From assembly GCA_965203905.1 (NCBI GenBank), contig CBDBDQ010000005.1, positions 1,568,001 through 1,632,000 of the forward strand: a DNA stretch of 64,000 nt, in the 5' to 3' direction. The notes below the pieces were generated by a model. That model was not told the DNA's origin and did not search any database. It was given only the letters and a program-made list of their open reading frames with translations. The stretch comes from Spirochaetia bacterium (GTDB taxonomy: Bacteria; Spirochaetota; Spirochaetia; SZUA-6; Bin103). Made by a program: the position numbers and the translations under genes. Positions 244 to 25,607 of this stretch are shown one piece after another (the stretch's first letter is position 1; every line of letters begins with the position of its first letter).

Positions 244-936
244 TCACTCATCAGCCGGAGGCCGGGTGCGGCCGCGGGCCCGGCGCCGGTCGACGCGCTC
301 GGCGCGATTGCGCAGGGTCAGGCGGCGCCGCAGGCCGCGTTCCACCAGGGTCAGCGTGTCCTCGATCAACTCGTCGTTGCCCTCGCTGCCGAAGTCCGTC
401 AGCAGCGAGGTGTAGAGCGCGATCAGCATGCGCCGCGCGTTGCGGAAACGGCCGATGCGGAACGGTCCGCCGGCGGGCGCCGGCGCGCAGTATGTCGTCG
501 ATCATGTCACCGATGTTCCTGAGCACCCACTCCGAGCGCTGCACGGGTACCGTTCCCGGGCAGGTGAAACGGCGGTCTCCGGTCAGCATGCCGCGCAGTA
601 TGGGGCTGTGACGCAGCCCCAGGGTAATGAACCGGTACAGCGCCTTGAGTTGGTTCATGGGCGACTCGAAACGGCTGACCACGCGCCGCGCCTCGCTGAT
701 GGCGCGCCGTTCGATCAGCTCGAGGATGTGGCCGTAGAACGCCTCCTTGCTCGGGAAGTAGTTGTAGAAGCTCCCGGTGGCGAGCCCGGAGGCGTGCGTG
801 ATCTGCTCTACGCTGACGTCGCGGTAACCCTGTTCCGCGAACAGCCGCTCGCCGTTGGCCAGCAGCGCTGCCCGGCGGCGGGTGCGCTGGGAATGCCCCT
901 GCGGCGAACGAATGAATGTTGCGTTCAGATATTCAT
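244..936 (-). CDS. TetR/AcrR family regulator, frameshifted near 466-480; start uncertain
   Basis: HTH LFAEQGYRDVSVEQITHASGLATGSFYNYFPSKE in ORF 251..1000. A plausible C-terminus (GPFRIGRFRNARRMLIALY...) continues in the frame of ORF 244..429. Confidence 0.8.
912..936. promoter_or_regulatory. Imperfect inverted repeat, candidate TetR operator
   Basis: ATGAATGT-N9-ATATTCAT (7/8 match), AT-rich, at the tetR 5' end and upstream of the divergent cysteate synthase. Confidence 0.35.
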
Positions 937-1065
937 CCCCCGTTGCGGACGCCAGACCCGATTCCGTGGCCTGTGGGCCGTTTCCCGGGCAGCGTACCAC
1001 CTTTGTCGGTCACAACGGAACACCCCGTCCGCGGCTTCGCGTACATTGGGGAACGAGATTGCAGA

Positions 1066-2475
1066 ATGGAAGCGAGCCACTACGTGCTGCGGTGCATGTC
1101 CTGCGGGCGACAACGGAACGAAAGTCGCCACGGGTTTGCCCTGTACTGCAGTTGTGCCGACCCGGCAGCGGGACTCCTGCGTGCCGAATACACCGAGCCA
1201 CGTTTCGTCGTCAATGCCGGCAGCGGTCTGTTCCGGTACGGACACTGGTTGCCGATCCGGTCGCCGCACGGGCCCCGCTCCGCCGCGAGCGGCGCCCGCT
1301 GCGGGCCGGTGGCCTACCGCAGTTCCGCGCTGGCGCACCACCTGGGCCTGGAACGGCTGGTGGTGCTGTACAACGGCTACTGGCCGGAACGCGGCGCCGG
1401 CCTGGAGAGCTGCTCCTTCAAGGAGCTCGAAGCGCTCGCGGTCACCGCCCGGCTGGCCGCGGACGAGCCGCGGACGCTGGTCGTGGCATCGGCCGGAAAC
1501 ACCGGGCGCGCCTTCCACGCGGTCTGCTCGCGACGCGGGCTGCCGGTGGTGGTGGTCGTGCCGCAAGCGGCCCTGCCCCTGCTCTGGACCACCGCCCCGG
1601 TATCGTCCGCGGTGACCCTGGTGGCCGTCAGCGGCGGCGCCGACTATGCCGACGTCATCCGCGTCGCCGCCATGGTGTCGGAGTTGCCCGGCTACCTGGC
1701 GGAGGGCGGCGCCCACAACGTGGCGCGCCGCGACGGCATGGGCTCGGTGATGCTGGCGGGCGTGGAGTGTGCCGGCGAGCTGCCGGACCACTACTTCCAG
1801 GCGGTGGGCAGCGGCACCGGCGCCATCGCCGCGTGGGAGATGGCGCAGCGCCTGGTGGCCGACGGGCGCTTCGGCGACCGCGTGCCGCGCCTGCACCTGG
1901 CCCAGAACGCGCCGTTCACGATCATGGCGGACGCCTGGCAGGCAGGCAGCCGTACGCTGCCGCCGCTGGACGAATCGCTGGCCAAGCGGCGCATCGCGGC
2001 CATGCAGGCCGCGGTCCTCAGCAACCGCCGGCCCCCCTACTCGCTGGCGGGAGGCGTGTTCGATGCCCTGGCGGCGAGCGCCGGCAGCATGTACCGGGTG
2101 CCGAACGGCGCCGCCGCGCGGGCCGCGGCGCTGTTCGCGGAAACGGAGGGCAGCGATCTCGATCCGGCCGCCGCCGTGGCGCTGGCGGCCCTGCAGCAGG
2201 CGCGGGCCGAGGGCGCGATAGGGAGCCGCGACACGGTGTTCCTCAACGTCACCGGCGGCGGGTTCCAGCGCCTGCGCGCCGAGGGACGGGTGCGCAAGCT
2301 GTTGCCCGATCTGGTGCTGGATCACCGCCGCGCAACTCCCGCAACTCTCGCCCAACTGCTCGACGGAAGTGGCGCAGCCAGCGCGGCCGCCACCGGCTCA
2401 TCGTCGCGCGCTGGCTTGACCCGCCGGCAGCCGCTTCGGCTTCCGGCCGGCCGCGCGCCGAGGGGGAACGCATGA
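1066..2475 (+). CDS. Cysteate synthase (PLP fold II, threonine-synthase-like)
   Basis: Motifs CSFKELEA (PLP Lys), ASAGNTGRAF, EGGAHNVARRDGMG, PDHYFQAVGSGTG, LSNRRPPYS, FLNVTGGG; N-terminal CxxC...CxC. Confidence 0.88.
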   Translation: MEASHYVLRCMSCGRQRNESRHGFALYCSCADPAAGLLRAEYTEPRFVVNAGSGLFRYGHWLPIRSPHGPRSAASGARCGPVAYRSSALAHHLGLERLVVLYNGYWPERGAGLESCSFKELEALAVTARLAADEPRTLVVASAGNTGRAFHAVCSRRGLPVVVVVPQAALPLLWTTAPVSSAVTLVAVSGGADYADVIRVAAMVSELPGYLAEGGAHNVARRDGMGSVMLAGVECAGELPDHYFQAVGSGTGAIAAWEMAQRLVADGRFGDRVPRLHLAQNAPFTIMADAWQAGSRTLPPLDESLAKRRIAAMQAAVLSNRRPPYSLAGGVFDALAASAGSMYRVPNGAAARAAALFAETEGSDLDPAAAVALAALQQARAEGAIGSRDTVFLNVTGGGFQRLRAEGRVRKLLPDLVLDHRRATPATLAQLLDGSGAASAAATGSSSRAGLTRRQPLRLPAGRAPRGNA

Positions 2476-3713
2476 CTGACCTGTTCGAAAAGTGCCACGG
2501 AGACGGCGGCTACTTCGGCCGCTACCGTGCCGCCGGCGACAAGTACGTAGTGCAGCCGATTCTCGATTCGCTGCCCGGGCCGCACATGGAGTCGGGGGGC
2601 CGGCACGTGATCATGTGGGGGATCAACAGCTACCTCGGCCTGACCGGCAACCCGCGGATCAAGGCCGCGGCATTGGCCGCGGTGAAGCGTTATTCCACCT
2701 CCACTCCCATGGGCTCACGCCTGCTCACGGGCAACACCTCCAAGCACGAGGCGCTGGAGCGGCGCCTCGCGAGCTATTGCGGCAAGCCCGCGGCGGTGCT
2801 GTTCAACTACGGCTACCTCGGCGTGATGGGCACCATTTCGGCTCTGATCGGGCCCAAGGACGAGGTGATCATCGACAAGCTGTCGCACGCATCGATGATC
2901 GACGGCACCATCCTGGCGATGGCCGGGCGTCGCTTTCGGCCCTTCCGCCACAACGACATGGAGAGCCTGGAGCAGCAGCTTCGCGCGGCGCGCAAGCGTG
3001 GCAGCGGCGGCATCCTGATCGTCATAGAAGGGGTCTACGGGATGCGCGGCGACCTGGCCAATCTGCCCGAGATCACCGCCCTGGCACGGCGCTACGAGGC
3101 GCGCATCTTCATTGACGACGCCCACGGCTTCGGGGTGATGGGGACCAACGGCCGCGGTACCGGCGAGCATTTCGGGGTGCAGGACGAGCTCGACCTCTAC
3201 TTCGGCACCTTCGCCAAGGCGTTCGCGGCGATCGGCGGGGTCACCACCGGCGCCCCCGACGTGATCGAGTACATCCGCTTCAACGCCCGCACCAACGTGT
3301 TCGCCAAGGCGCTGCCGATGGTCTACGTCGACGTGCTGGAGGCCACCCTGGACGAGATTCTCGCGCACCCGGAGTACCGCGAGCGGATGTGGTACAACGC
3401 GCGCACCCTGCAACGCGGGCTGGTGGAACTCGGCTACAGCATCGGTGACACGCAGTCGCCCGTTACTCCCGTGTACATCCCCTCGGGGCAGGAGACCGCA
3501 CGCGCCATCATGGTGATGCTGCGGGAGGACTACGGGGTGTTTCTTTCGGGCGTGACCTATCCGGTGGTGCCACGCGGGATCAACCTGTTTCGCATGATCC
3601 CCACGGCGCTGCACAGCGACGAGGACATCGCGATCACGCTCAACGCGTTCGCGGAGATCCGCGAGCGGCTCGCGCTCGACCTTGCCAGTCTCGAGCACCT
3701 CGCCACGGCCTGA
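2472..3713 (+). CDS. Alpha-oxoamine synthase (SPT/AONS family), probable cysteate acyltransferase (CapB/SulA-like)
   Basis: NSYLGL, SHASMIDG, FRHND, EGVYGM, DDAHGFG, GTFAK (PLP Lys), FAKALPM; ATGA overlap with the cysteate synthase stop. Confidence 0.8.
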   Translation: MTDLFEKCHGDGGYFGRYRAAGDKYVVQPILDSLPGPHMESGGRHVIMWGINSYLGLTGNPRIKAAALAAVKRYSTSTPMGSRLLTGNTSKHEALERRLASYCGKPAAVLFNYGYLGVMGTISALIGPKDEVIIDKLSHASMIDGTILAMAGRRFRPFRHNDMESLEQQLRAARKRGSGGILIVIEGVYGMRGDLANLPEITALARRYEARIFIDDAHGFGVMGTNGRGTGEHFGVQDELDLYFGTFAKAFAAIGGVTTGAPDVIEYIRFNARTNVFAKALPMVYVDVLEATLDEILAHPEYRERMWYNARTLQRGLVELGYSIGDTQSPVTPVYIPSGQETARAIMVMLREDYGVFLSGVTYPVVPRGINLFRMIPTALHSDEDIAITLNAFAEIRERLALDLASLEHLATA

Positions 3714-3718
3714 TTCCG

Positions 3719-4757
3719 GTGGCCGGCACTCGGCGCGCAGCGTCCCGGCGCCGCCCGGCCGCGCTCCGCCGCGCGCTGCCGGCGTGGCTTGCCGCCGGCA
3801 TGGCGCTGACCACCCTGGCAGGCTGCGGGGAGCGCGTGCGCCAGCACGAGTTCGCGGCCATGTCCACCGTCGTGCGCGCCACCGTGTACCACCGCCGCAG
3901 TCCCGACTGGGACGCGGTAGAGCGCGCCGCCCGCGAGTTTGCCGCACAGTACGATCACCGCGACCCCGCCAGTCCGCTGGCCCGGCTCAACCGCGACGGC
4001 AACGCGCAGCTCGAGCGGCCGCTGGCGGACACTCTGCGCGCCGCTCTGCGCCTGGCCGCGGCCACCGGGGGCGCCTTCGATCCGACGCTGCTGCCGGTCA
4101 CGCGGCTGTGGGACTTCGATCACGGCGGCACCCTGCCGGATGCGGCTGCGCTGGCCGCCGCCCTGGAGGCGCGTCGACTACCGCCGCCTGCAGGTGGACG
4201 CCGGCGGCCGCGCCACGCTGCAGGACGCCGAGCTCGACCTCGGCGCCATCGGCAAGGGCGCGGTGGTGGATCACCTGGCCGACTGGCTTGCCGAGCGCGG
4301 CTACGAGCGCTTTCTGCTGGAGGCCGGCGGCGACGTGCTGGTGTCCGGGCTCAAGCCGGAGGCCGCGCCGTGGCGCATCTGGGTGCGGCATCCGCGCCAG
4401 GCCGACGTGCCGCTTGCCATCGCCGCCATCGGCGTTGCCGGCGGCCGCGTGGCGCTGGCCACTTCCGGCGACTACGAACGGTTCTTCGAGCAGGACGGGG
4501 TGCGCTACCACCACATCCTCAACCCGGCCACGGGCCGCCCCGACAGCGACGCCGTGGCGGTGACGGTAATTGCCGGCAGCGCGATAGAAGCGGACGCGCT
4601 CGCCACCGCGTTATTTGTTATGGGAAGCGCCGGCGGCGAGCTGCTGGCAAGCTCCCCGGATATCGAAGGCGTGCTCATCTACCGCGCGGGCGGAGAACTG
4701 GCGGCCGTCGTGAGCGACGGCTTCCCGGCACAGCAGGGCCGGGTCAACGTCAACTGA
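3719..4757 (+). CDS. apbE: FAD:protein FMN transferase ApbE (lipoprotein), frameshift at about 4168
   Basis: Lipobox LAGC and GAFDPT...LWDF in the first frame; LDLGAIGKG, EAGGD, ATSGDYERF, YHHILNP, ADALAT in the second; one extra G in gaGGcgcgtcgac. Confidence 0.88.
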
Positions 4758-7824: not shown

Positions 7825-8090
7825 CCTTTATTGCAGCTATGGGCACTGCCACTAAACCGAGGCATGGTGTCGTACAATACCTCCCATTCCACGGAGACGA
7901 CCTAGCGCCAGATTGGCTCTATCCAAATGGCACGAACCGCCGTGGGCGATGGTGAGGATCAGGTTAAGCGGGTAACCAAGAATGGCCAGGTTACGATTTC
8001 AGGTTCAAGGACAACTCGGAAGTATCACCCTGTCTGGGTTTCTGGGTCAAATCCAAGATCACCTGCATATGTTAAAAGAATACGAAGGTC

Positions 8091-8453
8091 TTGCTTCCAG
8101 AGCAAGATGAATCACTCGGCTCTGCGGAGGGTACTCTGGAGACGATATCGATCCATCGCGGCCGGCGATTCGTCATCTATCACAGCAGAACGAAGAAAGC
8201 GATCCACTGCGATATTCCAAGCGAATCTAATCTTCTTGACCAAGCTATGGACGCACTCGGTAATCGGGTGGTAGTGGGTGGCCGACTGCATACGAACGCA
8301 CGCGGTGAACCAGTACGAATTTTGGTCGAAGAGCTGCGAACTTTGAGAGAGCAGTCGAAGTTGCCAAGTATAGCCTCGTTGGGCGGCAGTTACCCCGACA
8401 TCACTGGCGACCTTACGACAGAGGAGTACATCAGGGGTCTTCGTGAGTGCTGA
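8091..8453 (+). pseudogene. C-terminal part of a putative PIN-associated antitoxin-like gene, 5' part degraded
   Basis: GSAEGTLETISIH...RVVVGGRL...PDITGDLTTEEYIRGLR; overlaps the PIN start; upstream frames are interrupted by stops; low GC. Confidence 0.5.
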
Positions 8454-8781
8454 ACGATATGAGAAGCCGTACTTGGACTCATCCGTCTTCATTGCCTGGC
8501 TGAAAGGAGAAATCTCTAAAGGGGTAGATCGTAAACAGGTTGCAGGACAGATTCTACGAAACGCCGAGCTTGGAGGATTCCGCATTTGCATCTCCGCATT
8601 GACGCTTGCGGAGGTTCACAAGAAGCGAGGGCATGCACAAATCACGGACGATGAACACACCGAGATACTAAGATTCTTCGAGCATGACTACTTTGATGTA
8701 GTCTCCGTGGACCGAATGATCGGCGAGGAAGCACACAGGTTCTGTCGTAAGTACGGGTTATCACCCGCGGATGCAATTCAC
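8443..8781 (+). pseudogene. PIN/VapC toxin, truncated after DAIH
   Basis: YLDSSVFIAW, ISALTLAEV, GLSPADAIH, then an abrupt switch to GC-rich unrelated sequence; the final T-x-D motif is missing. Confidence 0.75.
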
Positions 8782-8891
8782 CGGCTCGTAGCCGTTGTCG
8801 AACACGTAGTCGCCGAGCTCGTCGGCGCCGGCGGCAAGGCCGTCCTCGATCATGCGCAGCGCCGGGCCGACCGCGACGACGCTTCCGTAAG

Positions 8892-9066
8892 TCCTGGGCA
8901 ACGATTCCAGTCCTCCACCACGTCGGCGGCGACGGTTGCCGCAGGCCCAGCCTCAGCGGTCGCGGCGTTTCTCGGAGGACTGGAAGGCGATACACAGCAA
9001 CGCGTAGGGATCGCCTCCAACCGCTCGCTGGGAATGAGCGAGCCGCACATCATATATACGCCGTAG
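8892..9066 (-). repeat. Diverged copy of the dksA 3' end plus about 55 bp of its downstream flank
   Basis: Aligns by eye with 13740-13917; carries substitutions and a 1-nt deletion (gggatcgcc vs gggaatcgcc). Confidence 0.9.
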
Positions 9067-9075
9067 CCACAGCGG

Positions 9076-11083
9076 CGGCGTGGACTGGGTCGTTGCAACC
9101 TGCGACGCCTGTCGCGAACTGCGACAGTTCCTGCAAAGTGTTGCAGCCCAATTACTTGAGTCGGGATAGGCAGGCTCAGGCGTTTGCATCTTGGACACTT
9201 CGTCACGATTGTCCGCAACCGCAGGCTCTGCCAGTGGCTGATCCCTACCGATCGAATTCTTTATCAGGATAAGAATTAACAGGCAGACCCAGGCACCTCC
9301 CGGAGCTGGCACGGTTCCTGCTTGTCACTGTGTTGAACGACAACGACAAGGAGGATCCGTGCTTACGATTGTCGGCGGCATAGCGGGTGGATTAGGGCTT
9401 TTTTTCATGGGCATGAAGCTGCTCTCGGAGCATCTCAGGTTGTTGTCCAATCGTCGCCTGCGACAGAGTGCCGCCCGTTGGACCAGGAATCGGTGGACGG
9501 GGTTAGCCTGGGGCGCAATTGCCGGCGCGGTCACGCAGACCATGCCCGCGTTGACGTTCATCATGGTAGGCATGTTGAGGTCGGGACTCCTGTCCGTGCG
9601 CCGGGCGTTCCCCATCCTGCTCGGCGGAAACATCGGGGCGGTGCTGCTGCTGCTGGTCGTGATGCTCGATATCAAAATGGCCGTGCTGTACGTCCTGGGC
9701 GTTTCGCAGATGACAGCCATGATCTCAACGAGAAATAACCGAGCGGCCAGATACCAGACCATGGCCGCAGCGCTGTTCGGGATGGGCATGATGATTCTCG
9801 GGTTTCTCCTGCTCAAGGACTCCGTGTCACCGCTGGCGGACTATCCCTGGTTCAGAGCGATCGTGGCATGGGCCGACCGCTCGCTGTTCCTGTGCCTGTT
9901 GGGCGGCACGTTGCTGTCCGTCGCGATGCAATCGGCGGGCGTGGTGAAGGTTACCAGCATCAGCATGGCCGCGGCTGGACTCCTCGGTATCGAACAGGTC
10001 CTGATGCTCAATCTGGGCGCCTGCCTTGGGTCGAGCGCGGCCCTCTGGCTGTTGACGTTGAACCTGACCGGTTGTTCCCGGCAGGTGGCCATGTACCAGG
10101 TGCTGTTCAACTGCGTGTCGTGCGCCGTATTCGTTCCGCTGCTCATTGTGGAAGCGTACTTCGACGTGCCGCTGTTCAAGGCCGCGATCGTCTCCATCGA
10201 TCTCCCTCTGGCGCAGCGATTGGCGTTGTTCGCCGTCTTCGTTGAGCTGACCACCTGCACGTTCCAGCTCACGGTCCTGGGGCCGGCCGCGCGGCTGATC
10301 GCACGCTGGTGGCCGGCTACGGAAGCGGAGACCCTGTCGAAACCGTGGTACGTTCACGACCAAGCCCTGGAAGACGCCGCCAGCTCGCTGCGGCTGGCCG
10401 ATCGCGAACAGCGGCGTCTGCTGGAGATACTGTCGCGCTGTCTCGACACGGTACGGCAGGGCACCGAGCTGGGCGCGCTGCGCGAGGCGGCAAAGGCGGT
10501 GCTGACCCGCATCGAGGAATTCCTGGACGACCTGGCGGAGCATTACCCGGACCAGAGTATCGATGACCACGTTTCGATGCTCACGCGCCAGCGGTTGCTG
10601 TTCTGGCTCGATGAACGGGTGCTGGAGCTGTGCGAAGTGCTGCATACCATGCCCCGGCGAGCGGAGCTGGAGGATTGGCGCATGGGTCTGGTCGAGGGCA
10701 TCGACGCCGTGCTGCTGGTGCTGCAAGACATGCTGAGTGCCGGCGACGAGGAGTCCTGGCCGCTTACCATGCAATTGATGAACAGCCGCGGCGAGCTGAT
10801 GCGCAGGACGAGAAGCACGTACCTGGGGGACGGATCGTCCCTGAGCGCCGCACAACGAACGAGTGTGCTGCGGCTCACCAGTATCACGGAGCACATCTTC
10901 CTGCTGTTGTCGCGACTGGCGCACGAATATCAACGGTACGCCGCTGAGAATGCCGACGGGCAAACTCCCGACGGCAGAGAGCCGGCGGCCGAGACGATGG
11001 CGTCGCCAAGTGGCCGCGATCTCCGGGAGGACGCCGCACTGAGAGCACTGTCAGCCGGCTCGGCTGCGCGAATGTAACCCTCG
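9076..11083 (+). repeat. Direct repeat copy 1 (partner 11472-13477)
   Basis: 9255-11083 appears identical to 11649-13477 (offset 2394; all overlapping ORF translations on both strands are identical); the first ~180 bp differ by substitutions and indels. Confidence 0.95.
9359..11077 (+). CDS. Na/Pi cotransporter family protein with PhoU-like helical C-terminus, copy 1
   Basis: GGLGLFFMGMKLLSE, ILLGGNIG, MQSAG, NLGACLG; hydrophobic N-half and helical C-half; AAGGAGG SD. Confidence 0.85.
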   Translation: MLTIVGGIAGGLGLFFMGMKLLSEHLRLLSNRRLRQSAARWTRNRWTGLAWGAIAGAVTQTMPALTFIMVGMLRSGLLSVRRAFPILLGGNIGAVLLLLVVMLDIKMAVLYVLGVSQMTAMISTRNNRAARYQTMAAALFGMGMMILGFLLLKDSVSPLADYPWFRAIVAWADRSLFLCLLGGTLLSVAMQSAGVVKVTSISMAAAGLLGIEQVLMLNLGACLGSSAALWLLTLNLTGCSRQVAMYQVLFNCVSCAVFVPLLIVEAYFDVPLFKAAIVSIDLPLAQRLALFAVFVELTTCTFQLTVLGPAARLIARWWPATEAETLSKPWYVHDQALEDAASSLRLADREQRRLLEILSRCLDTVRQGTELGALREAAKAVLTRIEEFLDDLAEHYPDQSIDDHVSMLTRQRLLFWLDERVLELCEVLHTMPRRAELEDWRMGLVEGIDAVLLVLQDMLSAGDEESWPLTMQLMNSRGELMRRTRSTYLGDGSSLSAAQRTSVLRLTSITEHIFLLLSRLAHEYQRYAAENADGQTPDGREPAAETMASPSGRDLREDAALRALSAGSAARM

Positions 11084-11127
11084 CCCCCCGCCGTCACGCG
11101 CCGGCCGACGAGCCGCGCCCCCGGGCT

Positions 11128-11436
11128 CGTCACCGCCGGTCGTGCCGTCGTCGTCGGCGCCGCTGGCTCTGTTCAGCCCGTGGTACGACTACCGTGACGC
11201 CGGCCGGGCTCCGGAGGGGAGCTACCGCTATCGGGGCACCTGGGAGACCATCGACCACCTGCTGTTGGGCCCCGGGCTGTTCGACGCCGCCGGCGTGAGC
11301 TATGCCGGCAGCGACCGCTTCACGGTGATCAGTGACGGCCTGCTCGATGCCGAGGGCAGCCCGCGCCGCTTTCTGCGCGGCCCCCCGCCGGGCGGCTACT
11401 CCGACCATCTGCCGCTACGCCTGGACCTGGAACTCC
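11128..11436 (+). pseudogene. Orphan 3' fragment of the EEP nuclease gene (diverged allele)
   Basis: 11161-11436 aligns with 7261-7536 (offset 3900) with mostly synonymous differences; no 5' part. Confidence 0.93.
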
Positions 11437-11752
11437 GCGATCCGCCGCGCAAAGATGGCCACCCGCTCCGCCGGCGTGGACTGGGTCGTTGCAACCTGCG
11501 ACGCCTGTCGCGAACTGCGACAGTCTCTGCAAAGCGTTGCAGCTCAATTACTTGGGTCGGGATAAGCAGGCTCGATGGTTGCATCTTGGACACTTCGTCA
11601 CGATTGCCCGCAACCGCAGCTTCTGCCGTGACTGATCCCCTCCAATTCAATTCTTTATCAGGATAAGAATTAACAGGCAGACCCAGGCACCTCCCGGAGC
11701 TGGCACGGTTCCTGCTTGTCACTGTGTTGAACGACAACGACAAGGAGGATCC

Positions 11753-13471
11753 GTGCTTACGATTGTCGGCGGCATAGCGGGTGGATTAGGGCTTTTTTTC
11801 ATGGGCATGAAGCTGCTCTCGGAGCATCTCAGGTTGTTGTCCAATCGTCGCCTGCGACAGAGTGCCGCCCGTTGGACCAGGAATCGGTGGACGGGGTTAG
11901 CCTGGGGCGCAATTGCCGGCGCGGTCACGCAGACCATGCCCGCGTTGACGTTCATCATGGTAGGCATGTTGAGGTCGGGACTCCTGTCCGTGCGCCGGGC
12001 GTTCCCCATCCTGCTCGGCGGAAACATCGGGGCGGTGCTGCTGCTGCTGGTCGTGATGCTCGATATCAAAATGGCCGTGCTGTACGTCCTGGGCGTTTCG
12101 CAGATGACAGCCATGATCTCAACGAGAAATAACCGAGCGGCCAGATACCAGACCATGGCCGCAGCGCTGTTCGGGATGGGCATGATGATTCTCGGGTTTC
12201 TCCTGCTCAAGGACTCCGTGTCACCGCTGGCGGACTATCCCTGGTTCAGAGCGATCGTGGCATGGGCCGACCGCTCGCTGTTCCTGTGCCTGTTGGGCGG
12301 CACGTTGCTGTCCGTCGCGATGCAATCGGCGGGCGTGGTGAAGGTTACCAGCATCAGCATGGCCGCGGCTGGACTCCTCGGTATCGAACAGGTCCTGATG
12401 CTCAATCTGGGCGCCTGCCTTGGGTCGAGCGCGGCCCTCTGGCTGTTGACGTTGAACCTGACCGGTTGTTCCCGGCAGGTGGCCATGTACCAGGTGCTGT
12501 TCAACTGCGTGTCGTGCGCCGTATTCGTTCCGCTGCTCATTGTGGAAGCGTACTTCGACGTGCCGCTGTTCAAGGCCGCGATCGTCTCCATCGATCTCCC
12601 TCTGGCGCAGCGATTGGCGTTGTTCGCCGTCTTCGTTGAGCTGACCACCTGCACGTTCCAGCTCACGGTCCTGGGGCCGGCCGCGCGGCTGATCGCACGC
12701 TGGTGGCCGGCTACGGAAGCGGAGACCCTGTCGAAACCGTGGTACGTTCACGACCAAGCCCTGGAAGACGCCGCCAGCTCGCTGCGGCTGGCCGATCGCG
12801 AACAGCGGCGTCTGCTGGAGATACTGTCGCGCTGTCTCGACACGGTACGGCAGGGCACCGAGCTGGGCGCGCTGCGCGAGGCGGCAAAGGCGGTGCTGAC
12901 CCGCATCGAGGAATTCCTGGACGACCTGGCGGAGCATTACCCGGACCAGAGTATCGATGACCACGTTTCGATGCTCACGCGCCAGCGGTTGCTGTTCTGG
13001 CTCGATGAACGGGTGCTGGAGCTGTGCGAAGTGCTGCATACCATGCCCCGGCGAGCGGAGCTGGAGGATTGGCGCATGGGTCTGGTCGAGGGCATCGACG
13101 CCGTGCTGCTGGTGCTGCAAGACATGCTGAGTGCCGGCGACGAGGAGTCCTGGCCGCTTACCATGCAATTGATGAACAGCCGCGGCGAGCTGATGCGCAG
13201 GACGAGAAGCACGTACCTGGGGGACGGATCGTCCCTGAGCGCCGCACAACGAACGAGTGTGCTGCGGCTCACCAGTATCACGGAGCACATCTTCCTGCTG
13301 TTGTCGCGACTGGCGCACGAATATCAACGGTACGCCGCTGAGAATGCCGACGGGCAAACTCCCGACGGCAGAGAGCCGGCGGCCGAGACGATGGCGTCGC
13401 CAAGTGGCCGCGATCTCCGGGAGGACGCCGCACTGAGAGCACTGTCAGCCGGCTCGGCTGCGCGAATGTAA
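11753..13471 (+). CDS. Na/Pi cotransporter family protein, copy 2
   Basis: 572-aa translation identical to copy 1. Confidence 0.85.
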   Translation: MLTIVGGIAGGLGLFFMGMKLLSEHLRLLSNRRLRQSAARWTRNRWTGLAWGAIAGAVTQTMPALTFIMVGMLRSGLLSVRRAFPILLGGNIGAVLLLLVVMLDIKMAVLYVLGVSQMTAMISTRNNRAARYQTMAAALFGMGMMILGFLLLKDSVSPLADYPWFRAIVAWADRSLFLCLLGGTLLSVAMQSAGVVKVTSISMAAAGLLGIEQVLMLNLGACLGSSAALWLLTLNLTGCSRQVAMYQVLFNCVSCAVFVPLLIVEAYFDVPLFKAAIVSIDLPLAQRLALFAVFVELTTCTFQLTVLGPAARLIARWWPATEAETLSKPWYVHDQALEDAASSLRLADREQRRLLEILSRCLDTVRQGTELGALREAAKAVLTRIEEFLDDLAEHYPDQSIDDHVSMLTRQRLLFWLDERVLELCEVLHTMPRRAELEDWRMGLVEGIDAVLLVLQDMLSAGDEESWPLTMQLMNSRGELMRRTRSTYLGDGSSLSAAQRTSVLRLTSITEHIFLLLSRLAHEYQRYAAENADGQTPDGREPAAETMASPSGRDLREDAALRALSAGSAARM

Positions 13472-14647: not shown

Positions 14648-16939
14648 TCAGGGGCCTGAGCCCAGGTCCCGCACCGCCCCCCGGCTGACCCAGGCGTCGA
14701 GACCGTAGCCGGTACGCACCAGGAGATGCTCACCGTGCTCACCGCGCACCTCCAGGGTGGTGCCCGCGGGCAGCGCCATCCATGGTGCCGCGTCGCGGCG
14801 CGGGATCCTGCGCAGCTCGGTGTCACCGACCACCACGATGGTGCGGGCCTGGTCGACCAGCGCCAGGCCGAATACTGCCGCGACCAGAACCGCGGCAGCC
14901 AGCAGCACGGCCAGCAGCGCCCCCGTGCGGCCGGGCAGGGAAGCAGGCGGCGGCGCCTCGCGACGCTCCGCGCCCTGCATCCGAGCTGGCAAGCGGCGCC
15001 GCAGCCGCCGTAGCAGCCGCTTCCCGACGGGGTGGTGCCCAGCGACGGCAACGACGCAGCCGGCCACCAGCAACAGCGCATGGAACGGCACCGCCGGCGG
15101 CGCGAACGGCGCCGGGCGATGTTGCGTTTCGAGCCCGGCGCCGCGCTCCACCTGCCCCAGCAGCACTCGGTAGCGCCGGTCCAGCGGCGCCCGCCGCAGC
15201 GCCTCCCGCAGCCAGCCGACGGCGCCGGCAGCATCGCCCCGCCCCAACTCCGCAAGCGCCAGGTTGTAACTGATGAGCGCCGGGTGGCAGCCGAGCTGGT
15301 CCCGTGCGGCCCGGTAGCCGGCTTCAGCGGCGGCGTAATCGTGCCGCAAGTAGGCACGCTCGGCCGCGGCAGCCGCCCGCAGCGCCGCCTCCGGTGGGGC
15401 CCCGGTCGCCGGTGCCACGGCGGCCGCGGTCGCCGCCGCGGCAGCAATGGACGCAGCCGCGAGAGCCGCCGGGCGCCGCTTCCGGGCCAGCGCCAGGCAG
15501 CCGCCGACGAGCGGCCCCGGCAGCAGCAGCAGATAGCTCCGCGCGGCGTGCCAGGGCGGCCCGCAACGCAGCCAGCCCATGCGGTCGAGCGCCAGCGGTG
15601 GCGGTGCGGGTGCGGTGGCCGCCGCACCCGGCGCTGCCAGCTCGATCACCCGCGTGAGCCCCGGGTCACGGCGCACCGTGCCGGCGCGCGAGTCGAAGGA
15701 GACGAATTCCGGCACCTCGATCCGATAGCGGCCGGGAGCGGTTGCGAGGTAGCGATGGAGGGCCACGACCTGCCCCGTGTATCCCGAGTCCTGTGCCACC
15801 AGTTCGTCCCTCAGCTCGTGATCCAGCGGCGTCATGCCGTCGGCCCGGGGTACCGGCAGCGTGACGAAACGGTGGTTGCCCGACCCCTCCACGGAGATCG
15901 CGACCGTGACCTCCACCCCGTCCGGATGCGGCCGCCGCTCGATTCGCGCCTGCGCGCTCAGGGAGCCGATCGCACCGCTGGCGGCGATCTCCGGCGGCGG
16001 CTCGCGTACCGCTACCCGAACCGCCTCGGACTCCAGCGTCGTGCTCCCGGCAGCGGTTGCCAGGGTCACCCTGGCCGGCGCCACGATGATGCGGCCGGCG
16101 CGAGTCGGAGTCAGCAGATAGGATGCCAGCGGAATGCGGTACCCGCGGCCCGCGGAACCGACCTGTTCGCCGATCGCCTCCGCTCCCGGGTAGCGCTCGA
16201 ACCTGGTTGCCGGCGGCGGCTCCACCTCGATGCGCTCCGGTAGCCGAAGCTCATCCCACCGCACCAGTACCAGGTGCAGGCTGATCGTTTCCCCCACCAG
16301 AGCTTCGCGCCGGGTCAACTCCCAACTCACGACGGGCGTGTTGGCCTCCTCGGGCAGCGGCTCCAGGACCTGGATCGGCGTCTCGCGCGTGGAGACCACC
16401 TTGCCCGCCAGGCCGACCAGGAAGCCGTCCAGCAGATAGCGCCCGGGACGCCGTGCCCGCATCGTGTAGGAGACCACACGCCGTTGCATCAGCGGCGCGC
16501 CCGGGGTGCCGTCCGCGTCAGCCGCGCCGCCGGCGCCGGCGGCGCCCGCCACCATGCCGTCCGCGGCGACTTCCCGTTGGACCGGCGCCGGAGGCGTCGT
16601 CGCCGCGGGCGGCAACAACCGCGGGCCGCTTACGAATTCCAGGTTCGGCGGCGGCGCCGGCGCGGTCACCCGCAACGAGTCCTGGAGCATGCCGCTCACG
16701 TGGACGTCGAGGCGGAACTCGGCGCCGGCCATGGGGCGCGCCGGCGCCACCTCCACCCAGGCGCGGGGGTCCACCTGCGCCGGCGCCGGCGCGCTCCAGG
16801 GCAGCAGCCCCGCGACCAGCAGCCAGGTGCACGGCCAGGCGACCCGAGCTCGCCGCTTCCGCGACCGGCCGGCACGCCGCGCACGCCCGCCGTGCGCCAC
16901 GGCCTCCGGCGCCGCGGCGCCGAGGTCAGTAACCGTCAC
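14648..16939 (-). CDS. BatD-like protein with C-terminal TPR and SH3-like (BatE-like) region
   Basis: Last gene of the Bat operon; beta-rich repeats, GAIGSL, SVEGSGNH, YNLALAE TPR, LRRIP...LPAGTTLEV...DAWV. Confidence 0.7.
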   Translation of the reverse strand: MTVTDLGAAAPEAVAHGGRARRAGRSRKRRARVAWPCTWLLVAGLLPWSAPAPAQVDPRAWVEVAPARPMAGAEFRLDVHVSGMLQDSLRVTAPAPPPNLEFVSGPRLLPPAATTPPAPVQREVAADGMVAGAAGAGGAADADGTPGAPLMQRRVVSYTMRARRPGRYLLDGFLVGLAGKVVSTRETPIQVLEPLPEEANTPVVSWELTRREALVGETISLHLVLVRWDELRLPERIEVEPPPATRFERYPGAEAIGEQVGSAGRGYRIPLASYLLTPTRAGRIIVAPARVTLATAAGSTTLESEAVRVAVREPPPEIAASGAIGSLSAQARIERRPHPDGVEVTVAISVEGSGNHRFVTLPVPRADGMTPLDHELRDELVAQDSGYTGQVVALHRYLATAPGRYRIEVPEFVSFDSRAGTVRRDPGLTRVIELAAPGAAATAPAPPPLALDRMGWLRCGPPWHAARSYLLLLPGPLVGGCLALARKRRPAALAAASIAAAAATAAAVAPATGAPPEAALRAAAAAERAYLRHDYAAAEAGYRAARDQLGCHPALISYNLALAELGRGDAAGAVGWLREALRRAPLDRRYRVLLGQVERGAGLETQHRPAPFAPPAVPFHALLLVAGCVVAVAGHHPVGKRLLRRLRRRLPARMQGAERREAPPPASLPGRTGALLAVLLAAAVLVAAVFGLALVDQARTIVVVGDTELRRIPRRDAAPWMALPAGTTLEVRGEHGEHLLVRTGYGLDAWVSRGAVRDLGSGP

Positions 16940-17498
16940 CGTGGTCCGCCGGCGGCAGCGCGGGGCGCCGCTTCGCCTCCAGCCGGCGCACGAAGTCGAG
17001 AATGCGCGCCGTCTCGGCCGCGGCGCCCGGGCCTGCCGCTTCCCGCTCGCCGCGCGGCGGCGTGGCACGGGCCTTGCCCAGTGCGAGTTCCAGGTTGACC
17101 TTGGCGTCCACAGACGCCGGGGCCAGCAGCAATGCGTCGCGGAAGTGGTGCGCCGCTTGCAGGTATTGGCCCGCCTGGTAGCGCGCGTGGCCGAGGTTGA
17201 ACGCCGTACGCCACAGCAGCTCCCGGTCATGCTCGTGGGCAACGGTCAGCAGCCGTTCCACTCCGGCGTCGACCTCACCCAGGGCCAGGTAGGTGTTGCC
17301 GAGATTGTAGGCCAGGTGGGATCGTGCGCGGGCGGCGCCGGCATGCAGATAGTTGATGGTGGCGTGCACGTAATCGCCGCGGACGTAGGCGTAGTTGCCC
17401 GCCAGCGTCGCCAGCCGCGGCTGCCGGCCCCCACCGAGCGCCAGGATCAGCAGCAGCGCCACCACGGCCGGCGCGGTGCTCAGAAGGTATCGCGCCAT
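16926..17498 (-). CDS. TPR protein (BatC-like)
   Basis: GNYAYVRGDY, YNLGNTYLALG, FNLGHARY, DAKVNLELA (end of ORF 16926..18320). Confidence 0.8.
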   Translation of the reverse strand: MARYLLSTAPAVVALLLILALGGGRQPRLATLAGNYAYVRGDYVHATINYLHAGAARARSHLAYNLGNTYLALGEVDAGVERLLTVAHEHDRELLWRTAFNLGHARYQAGQYLQAAHHFRDALLLAPASVDAKVNLELALGKARATPPRGEREAAGPGAAAETARILDFVRRLEAKRRPALPPADHGDGY

Positions 17499-18502
17499 CG
17501 TAACCCCCGGCTGGCGGCGCACGCGGCCAGCGCCAGCAGCGCCACCAGGGTCAGCAGCGCGTGGCGCGGGCGGCGCCGCACCCGGAACGGCCGCTCGCCG
17601 GGAGCCGTGGCGTCCCCCTGCCGGTGCGCCCGCAACCAGGTCACCGCCGCGGCCATGGTGTCGGGCTGCAACGGGTCTGCCACCACACCACCGCTCAGTC
17701 GTGCAATCCCTTCCATCGCCTGATCGTCGCGCGCGGATCGTACCGCGCCGGCGGGTCCCCGCAGCGGCTCGCCGCGCCGATCCAGCACCGCGGCGCCGGC
17801 GGCGCTGCCGACCGGAACGGTGACGATCGCCACCCCGGCGCGACCGGCACGCAGAGCCACCTCCAGCGGATCGCCGGAGCTGCCCTCGCCGTCGGACACG
17901 AGCACCACCGTGCGCCGGGCGCCGGCCCGACCCGGCAGCTCTTCGCTGGCGTAACGCAGCGCTGCCGCGATACCCGAGGCCCCCAGCGCCGGCGCCGTCT
18001 CGCGCAGCGCCGCGAGTTGCTGGCGCAAGGCGTGGCGGTCGTCGGTGAAGGGCACCAGCAGATGGGCGGCGTCGCTGAACCCGACCACCGCGAAACGGGT
18101 GCCCGGCAGCTGCTCCAGCAGCGTGTCGAGGACTGCAAGTCCCTGTCCCAGGCGGCTCGGCACCGCGTCCTGCGCGGTCATGCTGCGCGACAGGTCGAGC
18201 AGGGCCACCACCTCGTGACCGCTGGTGGTATCCTCCACCATACCCTCTCCCCAGCGCATGCCCGCTGCCGCGAATATCACGCTCGCAATCGCGATCACCG
18301 TGAGCACCCCGTCGGCGCACCGTTTGAGCCGCAGTACCGCGCCGGCGCGCTTCGCGGCGGCCGCTGGCGTGTGCAGCAGACGCTGCAGGGCGGCGAGATC
18401 GCGCTGCGAACGCCGATAGGAGAACACCAGCGTCACCAGCAACGGCACCAGCAGCAGAAACAGCAACAGGGCTGTCGGGTCGTCTGCGGAAGCGGCAAGC
18501 AT
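17480..18502 (-). CDS. vWA domain protein (BatB-like)
   Basis: MIDAS DLSRSM, D..PSRL, VLVSDGE; N- and C-terminal TM segments. Confidence 0.85.
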   Translation of the reverse strand: MLAASADDPTALLLFLLLVPLLVTLVFSYRRSQRDLAALQRLLHTPAAAAKRAGAVLRLKRCADGVLTVIAIASVIFAAAGMRWGEGMVEDTTSGHEVVALLDLSRSMTAQDAVPSRLGQGLAVLDTLLEQLPGTRFAVVGFSDAAHLLVPFTDDRHALRQQLAALRETAPALGASGIAAALRYASEELPGRAGARRTVVLVSDGEGSSGDPLEVALRAGRAGVAIVTVPVGSAAGAAVLDRRGEPLRGPAGAVRSARDDQAMEGIARLSGGVVADPLQPDTMAAAVTWLRAHRQGDATAPGERPFRVRRRPRHALLTLVALLALAACAASRGLRWRDTF

Positions 18503-18521
18503 CGTCCGGCCGGCGCCTCTC

Positions 18522-19529
18522 CTAAAACAGCTCGGCAGCGATGACGCGGCGCAGGAGCACCTCCAGCAGCAGCAGCGCCAGCGCCGCCAGCAGCAGCTCC
18601 ACGTGGAGCGGCTCGCGCAACACGCGCACCCGGGTACGCGCCTCGACCCGTTCCAGGGAGTCGATCTCCCGGAACACCGCGGCCAGGGCGCCGGGTTCGG
18701 CGGCGGCGAAGTAGCGCCCGCCGGTGGTCTCCGCGACGTGCTGCAACAACGCCTCGTCGAAGCGTCCGTGATAGATCCCGCGGTGGGTCAGACCGCTCCG
18801 CGTATCGGTCAGTTCCAACGCGGTCGCGCCGGTTCGACCGACGCCGATGGTGTAGATGCGCACCCCCGTCTCGGCCGCGATGTCGGCGGCGGTCCGGGGC
18901 GATATCTCTCCGGCGTTGTTCTCGCCGTCGGTGAGCAGGATGATCACGCGCCCGGCGGCGGAACTGTCCTGCAGGTGCACCAGCGCAACGGCAATCCCCA
19001 TGCCGATGGCGGTAGCGTCTCCCAAGGTCATCACCCGCAGCCGATCCAGTGCGCCATGCAGCGCCGCACGGTCCAGCGTCTTCGGCACCTGCAGTGCGGC
19101 CCGGCCGCTAAAGCTGACCATGCCGATGGCGTCGTTCTCGCGCCCGGACACGAAGTCGCGAATCACCTCGATGGCGGTCGCGAAACGGCTGGCGTCGCCC
19201 AGGTCGCGGGCCGCCATGCTCGGAGACTCGTCGAGCACGATCATCAGGTCGAGTCCCGGGGTCAGGAACACCCGTTCGCGGTGCAGGCGCACCGGTCCCG
19301 CGGCAGCGACGATCAGGGTGGCGACTGCCAGCCAGAACAGCCAGCGGGCGAGGCGGGCGACCAGACCGCGCGCGCCGTTGGACGGCGCCAGGGGGGCAGC
19401 GCCCCACAGGTGGCAACTGACGGAGAGGACGCCGCCGCGGCCGCGCCGGTAGTGGGCCCAGTAGATGGCGGGAGGAAGCAGGAGCAGAGCGGCCAGCGCC
19501 AACGGCTGTTCAACGCTCCACACGAGCAT
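18522..19529 (-). CDS. batA: vWA domain protein BatA
   Basis: DESPSM, TAIGMG, ILLTDGENNAGEISP, IYTIGVG, TGGRYFAA, IDSLE. Confidence 0.88.
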   Translation of the reverse strand: MLVWSVEQPLALAALLLLPPAIYWAHYRRGRGGVLSVSCHLWGAAPLAPSNGARGLVARLARWLFWLAVATLIVAAAGPVRLHRERVFLTPGLDLMIVLDESPSMAARDLGDASRFATAIEVIRDFVSGRENDAIGMVSFSGRAALQVPKTLDRAALHGALDRLRVMTLGDATAIGMGIAVALVHLQDSSAAGRVIILLTDGENNAGEISPRTAADIAAETGVRIYTIGVGRTGATALELTDTRSGLTHRGIYHGRFDEALLQHVAETTGGRYFAAAEPGALAAVFREIDSLERVEARTRVRVLREPLHVELLLAALALLLLEVLLRRVIAAELF

Positions 19530-20481
19530 CCTCCCCCGCTCCTTCCAGGGCCGCGTCGATTTCCCGCACCAGGGCGATGAGCTGCTCGGACAGGGCCTGC
19601 ATTTCGGCCGCGCTGGAGTGGCGGCCGGCGAACTTCACGCGATCGGCGGTATCCAGGATCGCCGTCAGCTCCGCTCCCAGCGTGGCGTGCAGTCCGTGGC
19701 CGGGCAGCGCGGTCCGCAACTCGCGGGTAGTGCAGGCGTGCGCGGGTATCCGCATGCGCGCCGCCAGATAGTCGCGGCTCAGATGGGCGAGCTGCGCGTA
19801 GAAGGTGACGGTCTCGGCATCCGCGCCGATCGAGCGGGGGGAACTCGCCTGCAGGCGCCGTACCGCGCGCTCCAACCGCGCCCGCGGCAGCCCGCGCTCC
19901 CGTTCCCGGCGCCAGCGGCGCACGCGCCCGGCAAGCAGCAGGCCGCCGCTTACCAGCAGGTAAGGTACTGTGAGCACCGCGGCGGCCGCCCCCAGCAGGA
20001 CGCCTCCGGTCCCAGGAAGGAGGAGCTGCGGACGCGGCGGCCGCAAGACGGGCGCCGCCGCCCGCTCCCCGGACAGCAGCGATGCCGCCTGTACCGGGAT
20101 GTTCTCCAGGCGAAACGCGCCCACGTCTATCGGTGGCAGGGTAAGCACCCCCGGACGGTAGCTGCTGAACCCCACCCGCACCTCCCAGCGGCCGTCCGAA
20201 CGCGGAACGGTGTCCACGCCGTGGACCACCACCCACTCGTCCGGCGCCACCGCCGCCGGCGCGGTGAGTTGCCGGCTGCTGCGCACCACGACGCGTGCGG
20301 TAACACGATCTCCCACGTAGAACCGGGGCGGCTCGAAGGTGAGCTCTTCCACCGTCGCCGGCACCGCTGCACCGCGCCCCGGCGCCTCCGCGCCCTGGGC
20401 ACCGGCGACTCCGATGCCGGCGACCAGCAGCCAGAGGGCGACCGGCAAGCGCCCGCGCGCGGCGTCGCGCTGCGCCGTCAT
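19510..20481 (-). CDS. Bat-operon membrane protein (DUF4381-like)
   Basis: Signal peptide, VGD beta domain, TM, then FYAQLAHLSRDYL...TTREL...ADRVKFA. Confidence 0.7.
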   Translation of the reverse strand: MTAQRDAARGRLPVALWLLVAGIGVAGAQGAEAPGRGAAVPATVEELTFEPPRFYVGDRVTARVVVRSSRQLTAPAAVAPDEWVVVHGVDTVPRSDGRWEVRVGFSSYRPGVLTLPPIDVGAFRLENIPVQAASLLSGERAAAPVLRPPRPQLLLPGTGGVLLGAAAAVLTVPYLLVSGGLLLAGRVRRWRRERERGLPRARLERAVRRLQASSPRSIGADAETVTFYAQLAHLSRDYLAARMRIPAHACTTRELRTALPGHGLHATLGAELTAILDTADRVKFAGRHSSAAEMQALSEQLIALVREIDAALEGAGEDARVER

Positions 20482-21365: not shown

Positions 21366-21425
21366 GCTGTGATGGGCGTCGGATTCGCGGCTCGGTGACG
21401 CCTGCCGCCGCCGCCGGATACGCGT

Positions 21426-22437
<1,012 letters not shown>

Positions 22438-22457
<20 letters not shown>

Positions 22458-25059: not shown

Positions 25060-25607
25060 GCGCCCGCGTCGTACTGCTCTGCGAGGACGCGCGAACCAGC
25101 ACTTTCGTAAGAAGGTTTCTGTGGCACCGGAACCTTCGAGGCCGGGATATTCTCACACTTCCACTTCCTTCCGACAGGGGATCTGGTGAACAGTGGGTTC
25201 GAGAGCAGTTTCCTGTCCAGTTGCAGGCTATTCGTAACAGACGGCGTGCAGTTCTCGTCGTAGTCACGGATGCGGATATGAATAGAACAGCCGGACGACG
25301 AACACAGTTGGACCGGCAGTGTGTCCACGCCAGCGTCACGCGTAGACGACCGAACGACCCGGTAGCCGTCGTGGTCCCACGGCGGAATATCGAAACCTGG
25401 TTTCACTTTCTGGAAACTGCCGAAGCTGTAGACGAGACTCATGACTACAAACCCGGGGCTCGCCGGCTAAGAACCCCTGATATTCGTCGACTTGCAGACA
25501 AATTATACGGCATGTGTCACGACGCACAACGACTGATCGGCACCGCGCCACCGTCGCTTACAGAATCGTGTAGCGAGTACCCTACAATCACTCAATTCAT
25601 TCGTTGA
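25056..25607 (+). CDS. TOPRIM-like partner of the ATPase (DUF4276/RloB-like)
   Basis: VVLLCED, GSGE, VVVTDAD (DxD), PRRNIETW; GTGA overlap with the ATPase stop. Confidence 0.6.
   Translation: MSARVVLLCEDARTSTFVRRFLWHRNLRGRDILTLPLPSDRGSGEQWVREQFPVQLQAIRNRRRAVLVVVTDADMNRTAGRRTQLDRQCVHASVTRRRPNDPVAVVVPRRNIETWFHFLETAEAVDETHDYKPGARRLRTPDIRRLADKLYGMCHDAQRLIGTAPPSLTESCSEYPTITQFIR

Follow-up and report, generated by a model that had tools for sequence, protein, structure and literature searches.

Does a spirochaete make sulfonolipids? This question is raised by two overlapping genes near the start of a 64,000-nucleotide stretch of DNA (the window), which corresponds to positions 1568001-1632000 of C5, the 7.79-Mb main contig of its source genome (G000). 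A sequence-only reading of the window had proposed that these genes, encoding a cysteate synthase and an alpha-oxoamine synthase, form a module for the biosynthesis of capnine-type sulfonolipids. Such lipids, which serve in membranes and in signalling, are required for gliding, have effects on TLR4 and on inflammation, and trigger multicellular development in choanoflagellates (PMC11211663, PMC10191378, PMC11525784, PMC3463246; all in excerpt). The pathway published for Bacteroidota comprises a cysteate synthase, a cysteate fatty acyltransferase (CFAT; CapB or SulA), a 3-ketocapnine reductase (CapC/KCR) and an N-acylation step (PMC9304779, PMC11211663 and PMC10191378, in excerpt; PMC13692747). 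According to the accessible text of a 2023 review, sulfonolipid synthesis appears confined to Bacteroidota (PMC10191378), which concurs with the premise of the sequence-only reading that these lipids are known mainly from that phylum. Surveys of human microbiomes with loose hidden Markov models (HMMs) report homologues in 13-21 phyla, and spirochaetes are not named in the portions of text available (PMC11211663, PMC11525784). A literature search pairing sulfonolipids with spirochaetes gave no paper on the subject among the matches listed, as judged from titles and the beginnings of abstracts. The findings presented here indicate that the pair very probably encodes the two enzymes with which a capnine-type sulfonolipid pathway begins. 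The identity of the enzymes is based on family and PDB-sequence scores, an active-site signature, a phylogenetic tree, and linkage to the supply of cysteate and sulfite, while we infer that this organism also has a reductase and an N-acylation step and makes the lipid.

The first gene of the pair (1066..2475, plus strand) encodes a protein of 469 residues, P0001, and the second (2472..3713, plus strand) a protein of 413 residues, P0002, hereafter the acyltransferase. The TGA stop codon of the synthase shares the ATGA at 2472-2475 with the ATG of the acyltransferase, preceded by a purine-rich GAGGGGG stretch (bases 2460-2480 read GAGGGGGAACGCATGACTGAC). Both genes are intact: their G+C content at third codon positions (GC3) is of coding type, and their products match solved enzymes over the full length.

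On TIGR03844, the NCBIfam equivalog for cysteate synthase, P0001 scored 484.3 bits, well over the cut-off of 324.9, and this model is specific: its cut-off was passed in one of 14 control genomes. The best threonine synthase model gave 76.2 bits against a cut-off of 303. Among PDB sequences, the best match was the cysteate synthase 9k3c (358 bits, residues 5-417), followed by a threonine synthase at 43.8 bits, and the protein contains the PALP domain PF00291. We infer that P0001 is a cysteate synthase, converting O-phosphoserine and sulfite to L-cysteate, and that it is of the threonine-synthase type, as the sequence-only reading had it. A threonine-synthase-like, archaeal-type cysteate synthase is used by Alistipes and Odoribacter, and Capnocytophaga uses the distantly related CapA (PMC10191378, in excerpt). 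Compared to the TIGR03844 type represented by 9k3c, P0001 differs in its low-complexity C-terminal tail of about 50 residues (~420-469), unmatched in relatives, and in being encoded in an operon with an acyltransferase, in a spirochaete.

The second protein is a fold-type I alpha-oxoamine synthase dependent on pyridoxal 5'-phosphate (PLP), with a PF00155 match at E 6.5e-47. When it was compared with all PDB sequences, CapB (28eh, 388.1 bits) ranked above SulA (7u7h, 358.9 bits) and above serine palmitoyltransferase (SPT; 3a2b, 264.7 bits), the SPT match thus lying 123 bits below that of CapB. Its identity to the tested CFATs is about 45-50%, and with CapB of Capnocytophaga ochracea (28eh/28fa, PMC13692747) and SulA of Alistipes finegoldii (7u7h; PMC9304779, in excerpt) it aligns end to end, over residues 1-401. 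P0002 stayed below the cut-offs of all three SPT models (SPT-CFB, 317.2 bits versus 640; SPT-beta, 293.1 versus 500; SPT-alpha, 224.4 versus 670), and likewise below those for KBL (294.5 versus 460), BioF (290.5 versus 426.45) and ALAS (225.4 versus 338.55).

What in the active site sets this enzyme apart? The motif NVFAKALPM occupies residues 275-283 of P0002, and K279 is found exactly 30 residues past the PLP lysine K249. The latter aligns with K250 of CapB and K251 of SulA, and K279 is equivalent to K280 and K281, respectively. Lys281 of SulA, at the same distance from PLP Lys251, has been described as the one clear active-site difference from SPT, which has Ala at this position (PMC9304779, in excerpt). 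We counted this and other signature residues in our own alignment of 118 rows (P0002, 7 close homologues, 80 loci, 27 representatives, two paralogues from the source genome and one KBL neighbour), of which 111 fell in the counted groups. The lysine was present in 23/23 spirochaete-type rows, in both rows in which the alpha-oxoamine synthase is fused to a fatty acyl-AMP ligase (FAAL), and in 70/70 Bacteroidota-type rows, and in none of the 16 rows made up of SPT, KBL, BioF and paralogues from the source genome. Among the seven ungrouped rows, three have the lysine with deviations at other signature positions (P0172, P0173, P0175), two have Arg (P0180, P0181) and two His (P0168, P0183). A one-residue insertion giving P-M-G, and T-A-K in place of T-S-K, split the groups as the lysine does; P0002 has P79-M80-G81, N112-Y113-G114-Y115, H139 and T246-A248. 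At the lysine site itself, SPT, KBL and BioF have F-S-A-[AS]-L-P and the Bacteroidota CFATs F/Y-A-K-S-L-P, so the contrast between FAKALPM and the usual motif is upheld by the alignment.

The sequence-only reading had also proposed that CFATs carry an AKSLP motif in which the lysine binds the sulfonate. The presence of the lysine in CFATs is borne out; its proposed role is not. The K281A variant of SulA still binds cysteate and forms the aldimine, and its authors assign the lysine a structural role (PMC9304779, in excerpt), while in the CapB-cysteate crystal the sulfonate is hydrogen-bonded by Asn52, His139 and Lys250 (PMC13692747). The residues of CapB surrounding the cysteate adduct are Asn52, Gly114, Tyr115, His139, Thr247, Lys250 and Lys280 (PMC13692747), and in the alignment to 28eh all seven are kept in P0002. 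Beyond these, Gly81 and His217 (His219 in CapB) are kept, residue 246 is Thr, and position 113 is Tyr, as in 46/70 Bacteroidota rows; at positions 82 and 141 of the CapB pocket, P0002 has the Ser of SPT. In sum, P0002 shares with CapB and SulA a length of about 410 residues, the PLP lysine, the lysine 30 residues further on, P-M-G, N-[FY]-G-Y, His139 and T-A-K. With SPT of Sphingobacterium multivorum (3a2b/8guh) it has in common the fold and the core catalytic Asn, His, PLP Lys and Arg (PMC9304779, in excerpt), but in this SPT the site of K279 is Ala, the P-M-G insertion is missing and T-A-K is replaced by T-S-K.

The evolutionary position of P0002 was assessed with a tree of 59 rows picked from the 118 (IQ-TREE; support given as UFBoot/SH-aLRT). 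It was anchored by L040, from an Alistipes metagenome-assembled genome (MAG; 779 bits to SulA 7u7h), and L082, from a Flavobacteriaceae genome (699 bits to CapB 28eh), and its outgroups were named by NCBIfam cut-offs. The lysine-bearing, CFAT-like rows formed a single clade (41 rows, 100/99), composed of Bacteroidota/Balneolota, the clade of the window and two FAAL fusions. The Bacteroidota and Balneolota rows, including the orthologues of SulA and CapB, formed a clade of 20 rows (100/99), and P0002 fell in another clade, comprising 19 rows (100/99) and sister to the former. Its companions there are MAG sequences labelled Spirochaetota, one WOR-3, one Legionellaceae and one unlabelled sequence, and the alpha-oxoamine synthase (AOS) domain of a fusion of FAAL, acyl carrier protein (ACP) and AOS. 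A quick tree of all 118 rows was concordant. The assignment of P0002 to the CapB/SulA side rather than to SPT or to the BioF type (AONS) therefore stands, but the enzyme is not placed within the clade of biochemically tested CFATs, and because it falls in the sister clade its membership holds for the wider lysine-bearing CFAT family only.

Several other enzymes came to light in these comparisons. Three proteins of 1049-1127 residues (P0161, P0163, P0164) are FAAL-ACP-acyltransferase fusions with the CFAT lysine, and the cluster of the fusion found in the P0002 clade has one member labelled Rhodothermaceae. In a MAG labelled Legionellaceae (L012:9225-12145), the acyltransferase is followed by FAAL and then by a fusion of ACP and ComA (phosphosulfolactate synthase). 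The source genome has two paralogues of P0002. One (L002, C5:5441015-5442256) grouped with SPT-like rows in both trees and scored 470.7 bits on SPT-CFB (cut-off 640), and the organism may also make a serine-based long-chain base by means of it; the other (L003, C5:7779372-7780823) is BioF-like (338 bits versus 426).

Is the host really a spirochaete? The pair is situated on the main contig of a 7.99-Mb genome with a completeness of 98.7% and a contamination of 7.9%. Spirochaetaceae bacterium is the label of proteins 88% identical, Salinispira pacifica that of a protein 65% identical, and further proteins are labelled Spirochaetota. Over 4.2 and 9.2 kb, respectively, one genome of the same phylum and one of the same order are identical in sequence to records labelled Spirochaetota. 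A class I lysyl-tRNA synthetase, an enzyme form that among bacteria is typical of spirochaetes, is encoded upstream (462.8 bits). The spirochaete marker FlaA (PF04620) was unmatched in the source genome, a result that is uninformative since the 14 control genomes gave no match either. There was no sign of Bacteroidota, and the spirochaete origin suspected in the sequence-only reading is supported.

The neighbourhood of the acyltransferase was compared in the best 80 loci from species-representative genomes, 12 of spirochaete type (L004-L014, L017) and 68 of Bacteroidota type. A cysteate synthase gene lies directly upstream of the acyltransferase in 8/12 spirochaete-type loci, as compared to one inside the flank in 1/68 Bacteroidota-type loci; these counts measure linkage and not presence, as the flanks vary in length. 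The adjacency was seen again in 6/11 same-family, 4/23 phylum-sample and 5/7 same-order loci, and this recurrence indicates that the pairing is not due to chance. The ATGA coupling is conserved across synthases that are 42-71% identical. In a Pfam scan of the 91 open reading frames (ORFs) within about 5 kb in the 12 spirochaete-type loci, we found TetR regulators in 4, two-domain VOC proteins in 6, PanE/ApbA reductases in 3, and short-chain dehydrogenases/reductases (SDRs) next to the pair in 2.

Divergent from the pair in the window is a TetR-family gene (251..1000, minus strand; TetR_N PF00440, E 1.2e-12; the coordinates are those of the longest ORF, and the true start codon is uncertain). 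It is oriented away from the pair, and era (1-222 and beyond) comes next on the same strand. The ORFs, bases 2460-2480 and the TetR_N domain all agree with the overlapping and divergent arrangement originally described. A TetR gene adjoins the pair or the acyltransferase in L004, L005, L007 and L009, and in L108, L109, L114 and L116, the latter four being loci with no synthase gene, in which TetR abuts the acyltransferase directly. It was likewise adjacent in 7/9 loci of a further neighbourhood scan that included relatives from the same order. The window gene is the only match in its genome (41-50% identity) to the acyltransferase-adjacent TetR genes of L005 and L007. Such a TetR neighbour distinguishes P0002 from CapB and SulA; since it is conserved, the regulator probably controls the operon. 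The divergent intergenic region (1001..1065), defined by position only, would hold the putative promoters and possibly a TetR operator. A search for the operator gave one imperfect palindrome (973-1000, 76% complementary), a single weak candidate by which no operator is established.

Cysteate synthesis requires sulfite, and a possible source is close at hand. A sulfate-assimilation cluster of five genes (C5:1561834-1567297) is situated 3-6 kb upstream of the window start. It encodes CysD (340 bits versus 195), an APS reductase of the thioredoxin-dependent kind (TIGR02055, 253.6 bits versus 235.3) and a regulator of the Rrf2 family that resembles CymR. The other two genes specify a GTPase similar to CysN, whose APS-kinase domain is degenerate, and a fusion of uroporphyrinogen-III methyltransferase with a part resembling HemD. 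Among relatives, L010 and L014 have CysD and CysN/C genes immediately ahead of the pair, and L005 has a gene with a PAPS-reductase domain. The APS reductase/CysD/CysN-like cluster is thus a plausible source of sulfite for the cysteate synthase, and the cysteate source in this genome would be the TIGR03844 synthase whose gene overlaps that of the acyltransferase. The genome also has a ComA-family gene (C5:6929731-6930492) which matches PF02679 at 138.7 bits and scores 56.7 on the archaeal ComA equivalog (cut-off 280); its product might offer another way into sulfonate metabolism.

We propose the following sequence of events. By its family membership, the cysteate synthase would exchange the phosphate of O-phospho-L-serine for sulfite, probably supplied by the upstream cluster, to give L-cysteate. 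As suggested by homology and by the active-site signature, the acyltransferase would then form the external aldimine of cysteate on K249 and condense it, with decarboxylation, with a long-chain acyl-ACP or acyl-CoA. The expected product is 3-ketocapnine, a 3-keto sulfonated long-chain base. A ketoreductase would convert this to capnine and an N-acyltransferase would complete the sulfonolipid, both presumably encoded by unlinked genes.

Which gene could encode the reductase? The search for adh_short (SDR) domains gave no match at E<=1e-5 among 58 ORFs of the window (five small ORFs of 76-122 residues were outside the scan) or in the TetR protein, P0001 and P0002, consistent with the earlier remark that no SDR is visible there. 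By contrast, in a genome of the same order (G438) TetR is divergent from a synthase-acyltransferase-SDR series, in which an ATGA again joins the stop of the acyltransferase to the start of the SDR. This SDR (L125) and the acyltransferase-coupled SDR of L011 share their best match in the source genome, C5:2071120-2071977, which is 38% identical and reciprocal. The two SDRs and the shared match resemble Bacteroides KdsR over the full length of model NF049977, at 136 (L125), 148 (L011) and 110 bits, respectively, all below its cut-off of 400. The candidate at C5:2071120 has only housekeeping neighbours and is located about 500 kb from the pair. Another SDR of the genome, C5:1443428-1444216, scored higher on the same model (164.8 bits, cut-off 400). 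The reductase therefore has to be given as a list of candidates, of which these two SDRs are the best. The search for a CapC-like reductase suggested by the sequence-only reading has therefore yielded two KdsR-like candidates and none at cut-off. The published KCRs share only 21-27% identity (PMC11211663, in excerpt), and homology therefore cannot settle which gene encodes the reductase.

A second type of reductase has to be considered. In the phylum sample, a PanE/ApbA-type NAD(P)H reductase gene is divergent from the acyltransferase in 15/23 loci, those of family f19 (L087-L100, L106), and genes of the same type are found at L006:6797-7840 and L005:9868-10896. The f19 protein passes the TIGR00745 subfamily cut-off and no equivalog, and may represent a non-SDR ketocapnine reductase. 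A PanE-type orthologue was also sought in the source genome and rejected, as the PanE genes linked to the acyltransferase found nothing closer there than 26-29% identity. In comparison with the CapC-type 3-ketocapnine reductases (PMC11211663, in excerpt) and KdsR, spirochaetes therefore differ in that the SDRs are below cut-off, that the candidate in this genome is unlinked, and that another spirochaete family pairs the acyltransferase with PanE/ApbA.

The distribution of the acyltransferase was examined in two sets of genomes. Among 400 other sampled genomes of the phylum, 23 gave a match at E<=1e-100, and 16 of these belong to the 17 genomes of family f19; the three families with the most sampled genomes gave none at this threshold (0/50, 0/75 and 0/38). 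The second set consisted of 40 relatives: 10 from the same genus, 13 from the sister genus and 17 from other families of the order. The acyltransferase was found in 23/23 genomes of the family of the window and in 7/17 from other families. The synthase (E<=1e-60) was detected in 6/10 genomes of the same genus, 0/13 of the sister genus and 5/17 of the other families, and all 11 relatives with the synthase also carry the acyltransferase. In family f19, an unlinked synthase over the TIGR03844 cut-off was present in 5/5 tested genomes.

Several observations weigh against the assignment of the pair to a sulfonolipid pathway. The Pfam scan of the window ORFs revealed neither a reductase nor an N-acyltransferase; the source genome has at least 52 SDR matches, none at the KdsR cut-off, and the candidate SDR, found in 10/10 genomes of the genus, is found in only 2/13 of the sister genus (E<=1e-30). 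The acyltransferase is kept without a TIGR03844 synthase in 4/10 same-genus and 13/13 sister-genus genomes. P0002 is outside the clade of tested CFATs, in a clade whose members are known from sequence alone. Finally, two positions of the CapB pocket, Cys141 and Ala82, are Ser in P0002 and thereby SPT-like: Cys141 is found in 70/70 Bacteroidota rows, while Ser is present at this position in 16/23 and at position 82 in 20/23 spirochaete-type rows. Three alternative explanations draw on these observations.

The first is that the pair makes a sulfonated alpha-amino ketone that does not become a membrane lipid, perhaps a diffusible signal or a small metabolite, in the manner of the CqsA-type autoinducer synthases, themselves alpha-oxoamine synthases, with no reduction or N-acylation to follow. 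A two-gene operon under a TetR regulator with neither of the later genes linked would suit such a function, as would a reductase partner that varies by lineage between SDR, PanE type and none. P0002 does match the model for CqsA-type quorum-signal synthases (NF005526), but its 183 bits are far under the cut-off of 428 and under its CFAT matches. Moreover, relatives couple a reductase to the acyltransferase or pair one divergently with it, as a long-chain-base pathway predicts, and the presence of the acyltransferase throughout the family fits a structural lipid. We consider such a product improbable.

The second is that the acyltransferase uses another amino acid, such as serine, phosphoserine, homocysteate or another acidic one, and that the cysteate synthase serves a different need. 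It is among the relatives that keep the acyltransferase with no recognisable synthase that this proposal finds its footing: TIGR03844 was over cut-off in 0/5 near-complete genomes of this kind, and in those bacteria the amino-acid substrate, or its source, may be another. ComA was considered as their alternative route to cysteate and rejected, as it was found in only 4/41 genomes (G000 included) and in 0/13 of the sister genus. These relatives may also take up cysteate or obtain it by a CapA-type enzyme or from some other source. The two SPT-like serines and the sequence-only nature of the clade also speak for another substrate, but the CFAT signature is complete save for positions 82 and 141, the Cys141Ala variant of CapB was still active, at about 19-48%, and serine activity did not arise from any combination of SPT-like substitutions (PMC13692747). 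Together with a coupling to cysteate synthase that has been conserved while the synthases themselves diverged, this makes another substrate for P0002 very unlikely.

It is just as hard to credit that the module is a remnant or incomplete here, maybe making cysteate and 3-ketocapnine and no finished sulfonolipid, for while the missing linked reductase, the loss of the synthase in several relatives and a frameshifted ApbE-like gene downstream in this assembly could be so interpreted, both genes of the pair are intact, the pathway genes of Bacteroidota are mostly unlinked as well, and two KdsR-like SDR candidates are encoded elsewhere in the genome.

The sulfonolipid pathway thus being the preferred assignment, it is tempting to speculate on the wider branch. 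Spirochaetota, with a few genomes labelled WOR-3, Legionellales and Rhodothermaceae, might hold an old lineage of cysteate-lipid synthases that stands apart and is equipped with accessory genes of its own: PanE/ApbA in place of an SDR in one family, a recurring VOC protein, and FAAL-ACP fusions. In the family of the window, in which the acyltransferase is universal, the synthase would have been lost repeatedly, and the bacteria concerned would scavenge cysteate or load a different head group. In both cases, sulfonated or otherwise acidic sphingoid-type lipids would occur in a phylum from which none have been described. Taken as a whole, this scenario is doubtful.

Some neighbouring genes deserve mention. 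The ApbE-family lipoprotein gene directly downstream of the pair (window 3719-4757, plus strand) is split over two frames, the first (3719-4201) covering profile positions 1-105 and the second (3939-4754) positions 104-263. The gene is intact at the equivalent position in the relatives L109, L114 and L117 (355-373 residues), and the split copy represents a pseudogene with a frameshift or, alternatively, a fault in the assembly. The VOC protein, with two glyoxalase-fold domains and about 350-366 residues, recurs beside the pair in relatives (L004:6622-7719, L005:4593-5681, L008:9296-10354, L010:9272-10369, L013:2259-3314, L017:9364-10422, and also L105, L124 and L127); it had no match in the source genome at E<=1e-8 and no NCBIfam name. 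Aminotransferase-fold neighbours were considered as second condensing enzymes in L004/L005 and rejected: the gene in L004 encodes an ordinary KBL (508.5 bits versus 460). The aminotransferase-fold neighbour in L010 is a PatB C-S lyase.

Further along the window, a tandem duplication (9073-13471; period, about 2394 bases) contains two genes for 572-residue proteins of the Na/Pi-cotransporter family (9359-11077 and 11753-13471) with equal Pfam scores. It is adjoined by a stretch of lower G+C content (0.573 at 8001-10000, versus 70% at the window start) with a PIN-domain gene (8443-9066). A second such stretch (0.571 at 24001-26000) includes an AAA_21 ATPase gene (23950-25056). Between them is a Bat/aerotolerance-type operon (14651-22457, minus strand) encoding a BatD-like protein, two VWA proteins, a DUF58 protein and a MoxR AAA ATPase. 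Toxin-antitoxin-like pairs are found at 54045-54622 (HigB-like with a helix-turn-helix protein) and 59637-60613 (RES with an Xre/MbcA-type antitoxin).

Our findings support the existence of a branch that is sister to the known enzymes, in a phylum to which these lipids have not been ascribed, with a predicted chemistry that is that of the known pathway. The interest is tempered by this familiar chemistry, and by the fact that the loose HMM surveys, in the portions available, already give homologues in 13-21 phyla (PMC11211663, PMC11525784). If the assignment is true, the list of producers would be extended by a whole family of large-genome spirochaetes, with a conserved operon version of the pathway, and a compact two-gene cassette for a sulfonated base would be at hand. 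The natural variation at Ser82 and Ser141 would bear on the unsolved question of how cysteate is selected, and the PanE/ApbA-type genes would be a pointer to possible non-SDR ketocapnine reductases.

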